Numbered from the stretch's first letter, positions 20,014-23,773 are shown. The stretch is 64,000 nt of DNA from Nannocystis pusilla (GCF_020073745.1 NZ_JAIRAU010000047.1:157990-221989); one strand, 5' to 3'. Numbers and translations are program-made. The notes: a model not told the origin generated them from the sequence alone.

Positions 20014-20904
20014 ATGGATCAGCGCGTCAAATACCAGATCTTCATCTCGTCGACTTACAGAGACCTTCATGAGGCTCGTCGGGAAGTTTCGTGGACTGTT
20101 CTCGGGCTCGATCATATCCCCGCGGGAATGGAAGCTTTTCCAGCCACAGATGATCGGGGATGGGGTATTATCAAACGGACGATCCAGGACTCGGACTTCT
20201 ATATTCTCCTAATCGCGGGACTCTACGGATCCATAGATCAAGAAACCGGACTGTCCTGGACCGAGAAGGAGTACGATTTTGCAAAATCACTCAACCTTCC
20301 CGTGCTCGCCTTCGTTCAGCGGAGGAGCGCAACGCCCGGCGACATGGTCGAGGCGAACGCTAAGCAGAAGAAACTGCTCAACCGTTTCATATCACGAATT
20401 CGAGAATCTCACTATTACAAAGAATGGAGCGAAGACAAGGAACTCAGCGGCCTGGTCAGCCTCGCGCTCACCCGTGAGATCCAAATCGCTAACGAGAGCC
20501 GCTTCCGCCCCCGAGGCTGGACCCGCGGTCCGGACGCGGCGGCAGCCTACACAAGGACCCTCGCCTTGGCCCAAGATCGCAAGAGCATATTGATAGAACC
20601 CCTCACCATTGATGGCCATCAGGCCCTTGCAGTCACCCATTCCTTCGCCCGATTGAGGGACCATGACTATGCCACGCTCACCGTGGAGATGCCTTCAGTG
20701 CCTTACGGTCGGATTACGATGGGGTCAGATGGAGTGCCTCAGCATGAGCTTCGCGGTCATACCCCACCAGCGACCACTGCCCAGATTCCCTGGACTGCGG
20801 TGACGAGCGCACGCCCGGACGACAGCCTACCACACCTCTTCCATCTACATCTCCGGCAACCGCTCACATTTCGGTCGTCGAGTCGTGTCTGGGAGATTAT
20901 CTAG
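20014..20904 (+). CDS. DUF4062 domain protein (first gene of the low-GC island operon)
   Basis: YQIFISSTYRDLHEARREVSWTVLGLDHIPAGMEAF...YILLIAGLYGS matches my recollection of the DUF4062 N-terminal domain signature. GGGGGAGG RBS. About 50% GC versus about 70% for flanks. Confidence 0.75.
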   Translation: MDQRVKYQIFISSTYRDLHEARREVSWTVLGLDHIPAGMEAFPATDDRGWGIIKRTIQDSDFYILLIAGLYGSIDQETGLSWTEKEYDFAKSLNLPVLAFVQRRSATPGDMVEANAKQKKLLNRFISRIRESHYYKEWSEDKELSGLVSLALTREIQIANESRFRPRGWTRGPDAAAAYTRTLALAQDRKSILIEPLTIDGHQALAVTHSFARLRDHDYATLTVEMPSVPYGRITMGSDGVPQHELRGHTPPATTAQIPWTAVTSARPDDSLPHLFHLHLRQPLTFRSSSRVWEII

Positions 20905-20906
20905 CC

Positions 20907-21446
20907 ATGGATGCACTTGTGAGCATCTGCATCTTTATGGGCATCTTCGCTGGTGTTGCGCTGGTCGTACAACGACTAGGGCGTCCCCCGGAACGTGCGC
21001 ACTTGCTCAGCACGCGGAGAGAGGGCAGCGTCGACGCGAACCGCTACACACCGCCGCTGACCCAGCCGATGCCGCGCACCGTGCCAAGTCCGACAGGAGT
21101 GCAAGCCTCGCACGCTCCCGATATTGAGAGCATCTTTCTTAGGTTCGAATCCGTACATGAACAGGCGCTCCTGATGAGTAAGGGACTAGACGGCATCGAC
21201 GCGCCGGACGCACCGCCGACCCCGCGCACGGCGTTGACCGATCTCATACACTATCTCTGTTGTGTCCGGAGGCTTGTCAAGCCCTTCACGCTCCACATTG
21301 GAATCCAACTCCGTCAGCAACCCGGAAGCCCAAGCTTCGCCGAGCCGATCGAATTTCCCGGCCTCCCGGGCAATGGGCGGGCGGACTTGATTCAAGAACA
21401 ACTGGCCTCCAGTTTCAGAAGGCACCTGGAGAGATTGGGTGCGTAG
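20907..21446 (+). CDS. Hypothetical protein with N-terminal TM helix (island gene 2)
   Basis: Starts 3 nt after the stop of gene 1. Has N-terminal VSICIFMGIFAGVALVV. No recognisable domain. Confidence 0.5.
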   Translation: MDALVSICIFMGIFAGVALVVQRLGRPPERAHLLSTRREGSVDANRYTPPLTQPMPRTVPSPTGVQASHAPDIESIFLRFESVHEQALLMSKGLDGIDAPDAPPTPRTALTDLIHYLCCVRRLVKPFTLHIGIQLRQQPGSPSFAEPIEFPGLPGNGRADLIQEQLASSFRRHLERLGA

Positions 21447-22454
21447 ATGACGGCGACCTCAACGACGCGACGCCGACGCCTCATCGCGCTGCTGGCCCTC
21501 CAGGCAGGGACGTTCTTCGTCACCATTCTCGCCTTGATGTTCGCTCACCCCCCCGAGGCATTCGTACCAGCGATCCAGGCCCTCTCGCTCGTGGTGGTAC
21601 TGCTCGGCGCGCTGACCGGACGGGTCCTCTTCTCCCCACCGAAGCCTTGGCTTGACGCTGTCGCCGAGACAGGCCAGGGACGTGAGACGCCCGAGTGCCG
21701 CGTTCTCTTGATCGGTCTCGGCCGCTCGGGCAAGACTAGCCTCATCCGTCAAGTCTTGACGGGAACGACTCGCGCCGAGCAGTCCACAAAAACATTCAAC
21801 GTCTATCGCGCTCCACGCGTGACCGATCTCGGCGGAGCCCGCTTCGACATCGTCCTCGCGGATTATCAAGGGCAAAAGCTCTCGCAGCTCGTTATTGACC
21901 CTCCGATTAGTTTCTTCGGCCCACCCGGCGATCGGCGGATCAACGCGATAATATTCGTGGTGGATTTGTTCAGGGAGCGTCGCGATGCGGTCGGAAACCC
22001 AGTATGCGACGCAGTGCTGCTCGAACAGTACTCGCACGACACAGGGGCGCAGATCCAAGAGCGCGTGGATGAGCAGTGCAAATATATCAGCGAGTTTACG
22101 ATCGAGATCATACTCGAGACGACTTTCAATCGACGACAGGTCTGCTCAATTATCCTGGTCGTCAACAAGATCGACCTGCTCCGGATTCTTGTCGAACGAG
22201 GGTGCCTTGAGGGGGTCTCCTCTTCAAATATGGAGCACTACGTGAGCAACCTTTATGCACCGCTCCTAAATCTACTGAGGGAGGCGGCACGAGCAAACGA
22301 GGTTGAGGGACTTTTCGGAGCGTACCTCGTCAGCGCAAGGACGGGCGAGAACGTCGCCGTTGCGTTCTCGGAGATCCTTCGGCGGTTTCAGTTGCTGCAT
22401 TGGAGGGGCTCCACAGATGCACGAGAGTTCGTGCAGGAGATGGCGCATGGATAG
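21447..22454 (+). CDS. Membrane-anchored Ras-superfamily-like small GTPase (island gene 3)
   Basis: Two N-terminal TM helices. G1 LLIGLGRSGKTSL. G3 DYQGQ. G4 VVNKIDL (NKxD). G5 VSARTGENV (SAK-like). Starts immediately after the gene 2 stop. Confidence 0.75.
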   Translation: MTATSTTRRRRLIALLALQAGTFFVTILALMFAHPPEAFVPAIQALSLVVVLLGALTGRVLFSPPKPWLDAVAETGQGRETPECRVLLIGLGRSGKTSLIRQVLTGTTRAEQSTKTFNVYRAPRVTDLGGARFDIVLADYQGQKLSQLVIDPPISFFGPPGDRRINAIIFVVDLFRERRDAVGNPVCDAVLLEQYSHDTGAQIQERVDEQCKYISEFTIEIILETTFNRRQVCSIILVVNKIDLLRILVERGCLEGVSSSNMEHYVSNLYAPLLNLLREAARANEVEGLFGAYLVSARTGENVAVAFSEILRRFQLLHWRGSTDAREFVQEMAHG

Positions 22455-23022
22455 ACCTCAGGCGCACCAAGGACTCGAGCAAGAGCGACAGGTCCGATCG
22501 CTGACGATGTACACAGCGATTGTCGTAATCGCCACGGCGCTCTCACTGGTCGCCCTGCTTCTGCCCCGAATCTCCGAGCCGGGAGAAAACCTGGGCATCG
22601 CGCTGGCCGGGGGGGCGCAGGAGGGTAGCGACAGTAGCGGCAATGGGAGTGAAGACAATCGCTACGAATTGAGGCGCAAGCTATCGGAGGTCGAGGCCGC
22701 TCGAGATCTCGGTGAGATGTGCTTGGGCAAGTGCAATTGTCTTTGCTACAGCAGGCGTGTCGGTAACACAATCGAGCCGCTCACCGTGTGTAGGCTGAAT
22801 CAGGACGCGTGCTTAGCGCTCGAAAGCAAGGTGCGGGGCAAGAGCCCAGGCTCATCATCGGGCCGCGCGGTGGGGAATTCTGTCAGCGTCTCCTGTCGCC
22901 AAGTCGATCTGAGGGAGATCGACCGAATTAACGGGGTCAATCGACACGAATGGTCTCCTAGCATACGCAATGGCGGAGAACTGTTCGGTATCTTTTATGC
23001 CGGGAAATGTCTCCTGGACTAA
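22447..23022 (+). CDS. Single-TM protein with Cys-rich C-terminal region (island gene 4)
   Basis: ATG overlaps the GTPase stop by 8 nt. TM segment MYTAIVVIATALSLVALLL. Cys cluster CLGKCNCLCY...CRLNQDAC...C. Confidence 0.5.
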   Translation: MDRPQAHQGLEQERQVRSLTMYTAIVVIATALSLVALLLPRISEPGENLGIALAGGAQEGSDSSGNGSEDNRYELRRKLSEVEAARDLGEMCLGKCNCLCYSRRVGNTIEPLTVCRLNQDACLALESKVRGKSPGSSSGRAVGNSVSVSCRQVDLREIDRINGVNRHEWSPSIRNGGELFGIFYAGKCLLD

Positions 23023-23035
23023 GGGCAGCAGACGA

Positions 23036-23773
23036 ATGAGCACGATTGACGAGCAGTCGGCAGCAGCCTCGAACACGGAAACACCCACTCGTCGGGAAGA
23101 GACAGATTCCTCAACCCGTGTTCCGGGAGGAGAGGAGAACGTGTTCGCGGCGACAGGTAGACGTGGAGACGAAGCCCGCGGCCGAGATGGGCTAGGCCTC
23201 GTACCCTATGCGGAATTGGACAACGTGGACTTCAGGGTCAGCGAGAGAGCGGTTTCAAATGCCGTCTCTGCAGGGAGTAAAGAGGCCGTCGACCCCCGCG
23301 CTTGGTCGCCACTGGTGTCCGGAACATGGTTACTCGCGGTGTTCACCCTCGTCTCGGTCCTGAGCCTCTCGATCTACGCATTTCGCCTCTCGAACCGCGT
23401 CTCGGAGCTCGAGCGGGTGTTCGCCTCGAGTCCTCGCGGTGGCGCTAGCAGCTCGGTCGACAAGGCATACGACATGAACGGACAGCCCGATGTCGAGGAG
23501 GCGCCACACGCGAAAACCGAGCGAAAGCGAAGAGACGCTAGATCGGAGAGCGTCGCCCCTGAAGCCCCAGAAGTCGCGGAATCCGCCGCGGTGGTCGGCA
23601 GCGAGGCTTCGACCGGAGATGCTGAGCCCTCCGCAGTCCTTCCGGAGACTGACGACAGAGTAGCTCCGCGGGAGCCGAGCGCCCGCGCGCCGAAGGAGAA
23701 GAAGGGAACGGCCAAGAAGGGTACCAAGAAGCCGAGTGGGGGCGACGAGGAGTCACAGGGAACACCCAAGTAG
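23036..23773 (+). CDS. Single-TM protein with charged Lys/Glu-rich C-terminal tail (island gene 5)
   Basis: AAGGG RBS. TM segment WLLAVFTLVSVLSLSIYAF. C-terminus KEKKGTAKKGTKKPSGGDEE. Confidence 0.5.
   Translation: MSTIDEQSAAASNTETPTRREETDSSTRVPGGEENVFAATGRRGDEARGRDGLGLVPYAELDNVDFRVSERAVSNAVSAGSKEAVDPRAWSPLVSGTWLLAVFTLVSVLSLSIYAFRLSNRVSELERVFASSPRGGASSSVDKAYDMNGQPDVEEAPHAKTERKRRDARSESVAPEAPEVAESAAVVGSEASTGDAEPSAVLPETDDRVAPREPSARAPKEKKGTAKKGTKKPSGGDEESQGTPK

Follow-up and report, generated by a model that had tools for sequence, protein, structure and literature searches.

Which function is served by five tightly packed genes, four of them encoding membrane proteins, that lie in a low-GC island of the Nannocystis pusilla genome? 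The genes (here g1 to g5, together the quintet) occupy positions 20014-23773 of a 64,000-nt stretch of DNA, referred to below as the window (GCF_020073745.1, NZ_JAIRAU010000047.1:157990-221989). A first-pass annotation had proposed them as a candidate undescribed conflict or defence module, and as a candidate this proposal is supported by the analyses presented here, although defence activity is predicted from sequence. We propose that the quintet may constitute one GTPase-controlled NADase conflict module, most likely providing abortive-infection or programmed-death immunity, and we assign this reading a probability of about 0.5.

A DUF4062/NIR protein at the head of the operon

The first gene (g1, 20014-20904, + strand) encodes a soluble protein of 296 amino acids (aa), in which a DUF4062/NIR TIR-like domain (residues 1-170) with a predicted catalytic glutamate, E86, is followed by a disordered linker and a C-terminal beta-domain (residues ~210-296). 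The DUF4062 label of the first-pass annotation was borne out: the protein scores 86.1 bits against Pfam PF13271 (cut-off 24.7, E = 1.8e-24), covers the model (1-82) fully, stands alone and has no predicted transmembrane (TM) segment. DUF4062, since renamed NIR, is a TIR-like NADase effector that occurs in Avs/NLR-like STAND proteins and anti-phage systems; Avs2 variants, Swarozyc, Evangelion, Vulcan and Vesta all use it as their effector and act by abortive infection, and relatives of g1 have been shown both to be active as NADases and to defend against phages (10.64898/2026.05.01.722283, 10.64898/2026.09.04.749371, 10.64898/2026.06.25.731849). These three preprints also bear out a tentative statement in the annotation that DUF4062 is recurrently fused to STAND NTPases in conflict loci.

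A sequence search of the PDB matched g1 residues 6-175 to the Swarozyc protein KpSwz (10wc_A) with E = 2e-34, and E86 (in TEKEY) falls opposite the alanine of the catalytically dead E97A KpSwz construct; catalytic glutamates lie at E97 in KpSwz, E108 in PsAvs2 and E98 in Vulcan. T83, E86 and Y87 are invariant in 71 g1 homologues. The AlphaFold2 model is very confident over residues 1-170, is predicted to adopt the TIR-like or deoxyribosyltransferase-like flavodoxin fold, and matches TIR domains (SPARTA TIR-APAZ, RPS4, SARM1 and TIR-STING), CMP hydrolases and deoxyribosyltransferases in a structure search, the same spectrum as that of the fold matches in the NIR paper. Two PHROGs families, both of unassigned function, were also matched. 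Judged by its sequence, g1 is a genuine member of the DUF4062/NIR family, in which every testable feature was found, and it is very probably an NADase.

The C-terminal part of g1 is distinctive. In close homologues, many of them from Myxococcota, the NIR domain is mostly followed by RPGWxRG, then a coiled-coil stalk (ELARLSxEN) and AUX domains of various kinds. The ELARLSxEN stalk is lacking in g1, which has instead the disordered linker and a beta-domain of about eight strands (predicted local distance difference test score, pLDDT, 56-86) common only to the g1 copies in quintets. Structure matches of the model to IF2 and SelB only hint at a small beta-barrel in this domain. We infer that the beta-domain stands in place of the phage-sensing AUX and serves to dock g1 on the other components of the module.

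Among known systems, Swarozyc KpSwz (10.64898/2026.05.01.722283; PDB 10wc, 11cq, 11cv) shares with g1 the TIR-like domain, the catalytic glutamate and an RPGW-type domain-end motif, and the same chemistry would be expected of g1, namely conversion of NAD+ into ADP-ribose and nicotinamide with abortive infection as the outcome. However, Swarozyc is a single gene with a helical stalk and a portal-binding AUX, whereas g1 has neither, carries an unrelated beta-domain and belongs to a five-gene operon; the similarity to KpSwz stops at g1 residue 175, and g1 falls outside Swarozyc as that system is defined. Avs2-NIR, Vulcan (NIR-HEAT), Vesta (NIR + alkaline phosphatase) and Evangelion (DUF4062 + AUX) resemble the quintet in combining an NIR effector with a variable sensing or regulatory part, and Vesta offers a precedent for NIR proteins in multi-gene operons. 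In contrast, no phosphatase, STAND NTPase or HEAT repeats were detected in g1-g5 (Pfam, E<=1), and Evangelion shares with g1 only the generic layout of a DUF4062 domain and a variable C-terminus.

The membrane GTPase family and its TIR-superfamily neighbours

The third gene (g3, 21447-22454, +) encodes a 335-aa protein whose motifs and AlphaFold2 model identify it as an intact GTPase of the Ras fold, carried on a membrane hairpin of two helices. The hairpin is formed in the model by N-terminal helices 3-33 and 40-62, and because its N-terminus is basic the G domain (residues 83-320) is predicted to be cytoplasmic. The motifs G1 (GLGRSGKTS), G2 (S113-T114), G3 (D139-Y-Q-G-Q143), G4 (N240-K-I-D243) and G5 (S296-A-R) are invariant or nearly so in the 13 sequences aligned, and the catalytic Gln143, which follows DxxG, is kept in the family alignment. 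A three-helix insert is modelled within the Ras-like domain at residues 188-226. Foldseek matched the model to Ras, Rab and Rho structures in the PDB (probability 1.0, E ~1e-8, TM-score on the target 0.6-0.72). Scores relative to Pfam gathering thresholds were 24.9/25 for SRPRB, 22.5/22.3 for Arf (covering residues 81-120 only), 21.2/48.8 for G-alpha and 19.1/27 for Roc; these matches lie mostly over the P-loop region, and the PDB profile search matched that region only. The first-pass annotation had described four membrane proteins, one of them a small GTPase, which agrees with the TM segments predicted for g2-g5 and with the presence of all five G motifs in g3.

The eukaryotic membrane-tethered GTPases Arf/Sar, SR-beta and G-alpha share with g3 the Ras-superfamily fold, a P-loop of the form xSGK[ST][ST] and the G3 motif DxxGQ, and SR-beta is anchored by an N-terminal TM segment, as is g3. 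The similarity to Arf, SR-beta and G-alpha is nevertheless limited to the P-loop region, and g3 differs in its hairpin anchor and its three-helix insert; g3 is not demonstrably an Arf, SR-beta, G-alpha or Roc protein, and an assignment to ROCO was considered on defining features and not adopted. In the GTPase-centric DO-GTPase/GAP1 conflict systems, the GTPase has a Walker-B glutamate and N-terminal zinc ribbons, paralogous pairs are frequent, and the partner, GAP1, is large and has three domains (PMC7159879; Kaur, Burroughs, Iyer and Aravind 2020). They follow the same predicted logic as the quintet, in that a TRAFAC-class switch, often membrane-proximal, is combined with a constant partner and variable effectors and is enriched in multicellular bacteria. 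However, g3 was rejected as a DO-GTPase: its G3 motif, ADYQGQ, is without the glutamate, it has no N-terminal cysteine cluster or zinc ribbon and is present in single copy, and its neighbours are single-pass proteins of 179-245 aa. No Pfam match of g1-g5 to DO-GTPase or GAP1 models was found at E<=1, and the quintet and these systems have no components in common. Two further bacterial groups are Rup1, which lacks the catalytic Gln and neighbours genes for OmpA-domain, coiled-coil, GGDEF or histidine-kinase proteins, and MglA, which lacks the G3 Asp and neighbours MglB/Roadblock (PMC4316618; Wuichet and Sogaard-Andersen 2014). Neither assignment was accepted for g3, which keeps both Q143 and D139 and has no OmpA, coiled-coil, GGDEF, histidine-kinase or MglB neighbours in the window.

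When 1.84 billion cluster representatives were searched exhaustively for g3 relatives with HMMER, 99 matched at E<=1e-30; the looser thresholds of 1e-10 and 1e-3 gave 212 and 423 matches, respectively. The best matches are mostly 290-335 aa long and aligned over nearly their full length. Members are recognized by the signatures ADY[KQR]GQxxSQ, FFG, (I/V)FVVD(L/M)F and (I/V)NK(I/V)DL together with N-terminal TM helices. By these sequence matches the family is small and coherent (~100-200 clusters at 50 % identity), and it has no model in Pfam, NCBIfam or PADLOC. Its distant members, at 27-41 % identity, come from Chloroflexota/Anaerolineae and from the cyanobacteria Microcoleus, Limnofasciculus and Microcystis. 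One 562-aa member (P0181, L048 213-1901), which has a TM region at its N-terminus, joins pentapeptide repeats (E = 6e-24) to the family G domain.

Nearly every family locus with enough sequence has a translationally coupled gene directly 3' of the GTPase, and the products of these partner genes have a common layout: a short N-terminus with [VI]D[FY][KRE][VIL], one TM helix, a coiled coil and a variable C-terminus (PD40, ankyrin, heptad repeats or nothing). The layout, common to 20+ distant GTPase loci, is present in genome loci and in 10 of 14 metagenome loci, and the charge distribution suggests that the motif is cytoplasmic. The arrangement of TM helix and then coiled coil is DivIC/FtsB-like, with a weak Pfam DivIC match (E = 0.004). 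On the other side of the GTPase the genes differ from locus to locus; those 5' of four distant GTPases (L004, L011, L014 and L018) were considered as g2 equivalents and rejected, as they are unrelated to one another and to g2, and one encodes a sigma factor.

Within the quintet, the probable counterpart of the partner is g5 (23036-23773, +), as judged from a short motif and the architecture. Its 245-aa single-pass product has NVDFRV (residues ~62-67) on the predicted cytoplasmic side about 30 residues before a central TM segment (~96-118), RVSELERV after it, and then a short coiled coil and an acidic disordered region that ends in a Lys-rich tail. A hidden Markov model (HMM) of the distant partners ranked g5 of one shorter contig (L007) and g5 of the window first among 817 open reading frames (ORFs), with the motif aligned, at E values (0.16 and 0.34) that are not statistically significant.

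Three separate TIR/NIR-GTPase configurations were found among about twenty distinct lineages examined, and these provide the strongest argument that g1 and g3 work together. The quintet is the first. In the second, a soluble 435-aa protein without TM helices (P0173, L044 1136-2443, GCA_020054605.1) carries a TIR_2 domain (E = 2.8e-28) in direct fusion with a G domain that has the family signatures (profile E = 1.4e-54). The third is the P0157 lineage (L045-L047, GC 0.53), where a PIN toxin-antitoxin pair is followed by a multi-TM GTPase, its coupled partner and a DUF4062 protein (375, 138 and 394 aa, respectively, in L045 316-4119, JGI 3300027911). The partner in this lineage has SFDFRV, a TM helix and a coiled coil, and the DUF4062 gene lies 230 nt downstream of it. 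The 394-aa protein scores 26.2 bits against Pfam DUF4062 (cut-off 24.7) and keeps the Glu; it is detected by the Pfam model alone and was not found with an HMM of the g1 NIR domain, and hhalign aligned it over the whole domain at low probability. Gene order, NIR clade and GTPase N-terminus all differ between the P0157 lineage and the quintet. A rough estimate from the general rarity of TIR and DUF4062 genes puts the number of such neighbours expected by chance at far less than one. Two minor features of these loci are a DUF3592 membrane protein encoded 300 nt 5' of P0173 and a weak Mrr_N (winged-helix) match in the C-terminal half of the 394-aa protein.

Other family loci adjoin genes of toxin-antitoxin (TA) or defence type. 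At the cyanobacterial GTPase-partner loci L021 4511-6186, L026 6098-7323, L022 11148-11834 and L024 5098-5736, which lie in variable stretches with many genes of these types, the neighbours are AbiEi/AbiEii, XisI, HicB/HicA, DUF4160/DUF2442 and an HSDR_N-domain gene, and one Chloroflexota-type locus lies near a caspase-STAND-WD40 gene.

One module or several: recurrence, mechanism and rivals

The two remaining genes are specific to the quintet. The product of g2 (20907-21446, +, 179 aa) has one N-terminal TM segment (~4-24) with positive charges after the helix, and is probably membrane-anchored with a cytoplasmic domain of ~155 aa containing a conserved NxYTPxL motif. Its homologues occur only in quintet loci, at 24-62 % identity and with low overall conservation. 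The product of g4 (22447-23022, +, 191 aa) is single-pass and consists of a short, basic N-terminus on the predicted cytoplasmic side, a TM segment (~21-40), a Gly/Ser/acidic linker, a helix and a Cys-rich domain in which eight cysteines (C92, C96, C98, C100, C115, C122, C150 and C188) are invariant in an alignment of 4 homologues, all of which are confined to quintet loci. The charge distribution indicates that this presumably disulfide-rich domain is almost certainly extracytoplasmic, and a role of g4 as a sensor is plausible. The labels "TM Cys-rich" for g4 and "TM Lys-rich" for g5 in the first-pass annotation describe these proteins well, with 1 TM segment and 8 Cys in the former and a central TM segment and Lys-rich tail in the latter. 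Neither g2 nor g4 matched Pfam, NCBIfam, PADLOC or PHROGs, and PDB profile searches gave nothing meaningful for either; PADLOC, NCBIfam and PHROGs searches likewise found nothing for g2-g5 as a whole.

We sought relatives of g3 and their contexts in a collection of 5.8 billion proteins. Very few were found, and the quintet, whole or partial, occurs in only five contigs. Outside N. pusilla the complete quintet was present only in one Polyangia metagenome-assembled genome (MAG; L001 = L002 = L016), in the same order and equally tightly packed, with identities to the window of 44, 26, 62, 51 and 37 % for g1 to g5 and with flanks unrelated to those of the window (Usp and ADH upstream, FG-GAP downstream). 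L013 has g1-g4, equally tight, before the contig ends, and L007 extends from the g2 C-terminus through g5. L008 has g1, an uncalled g2 and a g3 interrupted at an ambiguous base, followed by the contig end; it had been considered as a stand-alone g1 until tblastn showed the uncalled g2 and the g3 downstream. A second candidate for a stand-alone g1 of quintet type (L009/P0023) was rejected, as its C-terminus differs and it falls outside the quintet clade. The spacer between g1 and g2 is 2-5 nt in three lineages. Because the gene order recurs in the Polyangia MAG with unrelated flanks, and parts of it in L013, L007 and L008, the arrangement is beyond chance; the first-pass annotation had named neighbourhood conservation as a check on its proposal, and conservation is what we observe. 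When 185,579 species-representative genomes were scanned, the quintet type was found only in the Polyangia MAG and in no Nannocystis representative, which suggests that the island is strain-variable.

The base composition of the locus is foreign. The operon lies in a low-GC island (19600..24200) with sharp edges, GC being 0.50-0.66 inside ~19600-24200 and 0.70-0.78 in the flanks, and GC at third codon positions (GC3) is 0.63-0.71 in g1-g5 against 0.88-0.97 in the adjacent host genes. In L001, L013, L007 and L008 the module is likewise GC-poorer than its own flanks. Given this composition and the patchy distribution, the quintet was most likely acquired horizontally. An origin from a plasmid or phage is unsupported, because no g3 relative was found in 72,556 plasmids, 50,697 phage records or IMG/VR contigs. 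The window has no tRNA gene in its 64 kb, the repeat scan found no convincing direct or inverted repeats flanking the island, and no integrase or transposase turned up among the window genes scanned with family libraries. The quintet is a rare, conserved unit of mobile or accessory character; it is no housekeeping operon and no developmental operon common to a whole lineage. A conserved operon of that kind in Myxococcales was an alternative that the first-pass annotation had named as fatal to its proposal, and we found instead a foreign composition, five contigs and 1 of 185,579 representative genomes.

Taken as one functional unit, which we consider probable for the five genes, the quintet could operate as follows. 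The ectodomains of g4 and/or g5 would sense an event at the envelope, for example a phage that adsorbs or injects, or damage to the envelope. The signal would cross the membrane to g3 and change its nucleotide state via the g5 cytoplasmic tail and/or g2, so that the g5 tails and the g2 cytoplasmic domain might serve as exchange factor, GTPase-activating protein or scaffold. GTP-bound (or released) g3 would then recruit g1 through the clade-specific C-terminal beta-domain, and clustering of g1 at the membrane would relieve TIR-like autoinhibition, a step for which the portal-driven assembly of KpSwz is an analogy (10.64898/2026.05.01.722283). NAD+ would be hydrolysed to ADP-ribose and nicotinamide, and the infected cell would arrest or die. 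The opposite polarity is equally possible, with the GTPase complex guarding g1 and releasing it when perturbed. Zorya (ZorAB + ZorC/D) embodies a similar concept, as its inner-membrane complex senses envelope perturbation and controls cytoplasmic effectors, but it uses a MotAB-like ion-driven motor with nuclease/helicase effectors, not a GTPase with an NADase, and it has no components in common and no sequence or fold relationship with the quintet.

What is known in this scheme is the effector and the logic of abortive infection by an NADase; what is undescribed in the literature searched is the GTPase family with its partner and the two quintet-specific membrane proteins. The first-pass annotation knew of no described defence system of this composition, and we found none: PADLOC, Pfam and NCBIfam hold no models for g2-g5, the three NIR preprints cited above mention no GTPase or transmembrane partners, and full-text literature searches turned up no account of a membrane small GTPase combined with a DUF4062 or TIR effector. 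We also suggest, more tentatively, that the membrane-anchored Ras-like GTPase family and its single-pass, receptor-like partner form a transmembrane switch that gates TIR-superfamily NADases; the gated NADase may then be either NIR in trans (quintet and L045) or TIR in cis (P0173).

NAD+-depleting TIR-like effectors are central to immunity from bacteria to humans, and systems differ informatively in the way in which they restrain the effector and later activate it. The switches already known work through STAND/NLR oligomerisation, cyclic-nucleotide second messengers, complexes of Argonaute and guide, or phage proteins that bind directly. If such gating by the GTPase occurs, this would be the first small-GTPase-controlled NADase, with a mechanism distinct from those of STAND-, cyclic-nucleotide- and Argonaute-controlled TIR systems, and a prokaryotic cascade from receptor through small GTPase to effector for immunity or programmed death. 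Such control logic would be new, would resemble eukaryotic receptor-small GTPase-effector signalling and could report envelope events that escape sensors in the cytoplasm. The repeated association of the GTPase family with TIR and DUF4062 domains offers a concrete handle on its function, and the hypothesis is directly testable in a compact 3.8-kb system with clear point mutants (g1 E86Q, g3 K96A and g3 Q143L).

Several observations weigh against an immune module. The five contigs that carry the quintet are all probably from Polyangia, PADLOC recognises no component (Pfam recognises g1), and the window flanks are ordinary metabolic and regulatory genes with no recognisable defence island, so that the co-localisation with known defence islands envisaged in the first-pass annotation was not observed at the window locus. 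NIR + AUX proteins can act as single-gene systems, and g1 might therefore not need g2-g5. Most members of the GTPase family, in cyanobacteria and Chloroflexota, are GTPase-partner pairs without an adjacent NADase, and because of this the core pair may have a non-immune role that the quintet has borrowed. The equivalence of g5 with the partner falls short of statistical significance, the roles given to g2 and g4 are guesses, and translational coupling is read from gene spacing. The immune function itself is a prediction from sequence analysis.

One rival explanation, although an unlikely one, holds that the quintet is a non-immune signalling or programmed-death module of multicellular bacteria, which reports envelope state or cell-cell contact (in development, kin discrimination, or filament and septum control, for example) and whose NADase executes developmental lysis or growth arrest. 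The occurrence of the family in Polyangia, in filamentous or colonial cyanobacteria and in Chloroflexota/Anaerolineae would fit such a role, as would the DivIC/FtsB-like layout of the partners and the position of the window locus outside any defence island. However, the quintet occurs far too rarely and patchily to serve development, has a foreign composition and is not found in the Nannocystis species-representative genomes; all characterised bacterial NIR proteins act in phage defence, and relatives adjoin TA and Abi genes.

It is also rather improbable that g1 is a self-sufficient NIR defence protein of the Swarozyc/Evangelion type, its beta-domain sensing a phage protein, and that g2-g5 are an unrelated GTPase module co-inherited with it. 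The sufficiency of single-gene NIR + AUX proteins for defence and the prevalence of GTPase-partner pairs without an NIR gene speak for such independence, but the clade of the g1 C-terminal domain is found only inside quintets, the g1/g2 spacer has stayed at 2-5 nt in three lineages, and the GTPase family is tied to TIR/DUF4062 in two further architectures, one of them a direct fusion. A decaying or non-functional remnant of a mobile element, whose ORFs would be intact by chance or because they arrived recently and would at present do nothing in N. pusilla, is very improbable: foreign GC, the ~460 bp of apparently non-coding DNA of intermediate GC after g5, and a frameshift or ambiguous base in the L008 g3 would suit it, but the L008 defect coincides with the ambiguous base, in a MAG of low quality, each of the five ORFs is intact, and the G motifs, E86 and the eight Cys are kept across 26-62 % identity, which points to purifying selection.

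The operon, its island and its surroundings

All five ORFs were confirmed on the + strand at the coordinates given in the first-pass annotation. Its only error was the distance between g1 and g2, which is 2 nt (TAG cc ATG) and not 3 nt; the sequence agrees with it on the 0-nt spacing of g2 and g3 (TAGATG), the 8-nt overlap of g3 and g4 (ATGGATAG) and the 13 nt between g4 and g5. This spacing suggests translational coupling of the quintet genes. The start codons picked for g4 (22447) and g5 (23036) were also sound, as the L013 and L007 homologues start at the same residues. A purine-rich stretch lies 8-15 nt 5' of each start codon in the quintet, and the sequence upstream of g1 includes a Shine-Dalgarno-like GGGGGAGG at 20003-20010 (+).

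A candidate promoter (TGGACA, 17-nt spacer, TAGCCT) is proposed at 19949..19977 (+) from its likeness to the consensus. The block is conserved 5' of g1 in the window, L013 and L007; a strict promoter-consensus scan did not list it. The ~100 nt 5' of g1 (window 19900-20013, L013 and L007) are conserved more generally and include an invariant CGCAACGATAG. A 17-nt inverted repeat at window 19931-19971 is not conserved in L013 or L007.

Downstream of g5, ~460 bp of intermediate GC (~0.62; 23774-24233) with no convincing gene extend towards a convergent GMC oxidoreductase gene (24234-25844). This gap contains an 86-aa ORF (23821-24081) without a Pfam match, and a GC-rich hairpin with 16-nt arms and a 4-nt loop (23990..24025). 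The hairpin is a possible terminator; a T-run is lacking, and the terminator scan did not list it.

Divergent from g1, a gene at 18384-19745 (-) encodes a 453-aa protein with a hydrophobic N-terminus that by eye is signal- or lipoprotein-like and with a GHSAGG nucleophile-elbow motif; it has no Pfam, NCBIfam or PADLOC match. Its GC3 is intermediate (0.81), and its synteny with the quintet extends to L013 and L007 as well as the window, and not to L001 or L008. In L007 (1-4743; Logan SRR29352979), g5 is followed by a 413-aa minus-strand homologue of this protein (71 %), and at the contig end a second g1 N-terminus, 81 % identical to that of the window, runs off. This implies a ~5.5-kb unit, composed of the hydrolase-like gene (-) and g1-g5, that is tandem-repeated or circular.

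Two genes elsewhere in the window, 12813-14642 (+) and 37243-39660 (+), encode proteins that match PADLOC kinase-type models (PD-T4-6 up to E = 4e-65), and the second also matches the kinase model C3a189 (E = 5e-73). We did not accept them as evidence of a defence island and judge them to be eukaryotic-like Ser/Thr kinases, which are plentiful in myxobacteria. A 906-aa ORF at 30707-33427 (+), ~7 kb from g1, is major-vault-protein-like (Pfam MVP_shoulder, E = 1.2e-9; Vault_3, E = 5.6e-8), and the eukaryotic vault protein TEP1 has DUF4062 as its NADase domain; with its host-like GC and unrelated genes in between, the proximity to g1 is probably a coincidence. Lastly, the adjacent genes at 34661-35920 (-) and 36050-37255 (-) encode DUF4215 Cys-rich repeats, one together with a fibrinogen C-terminal-like segment.

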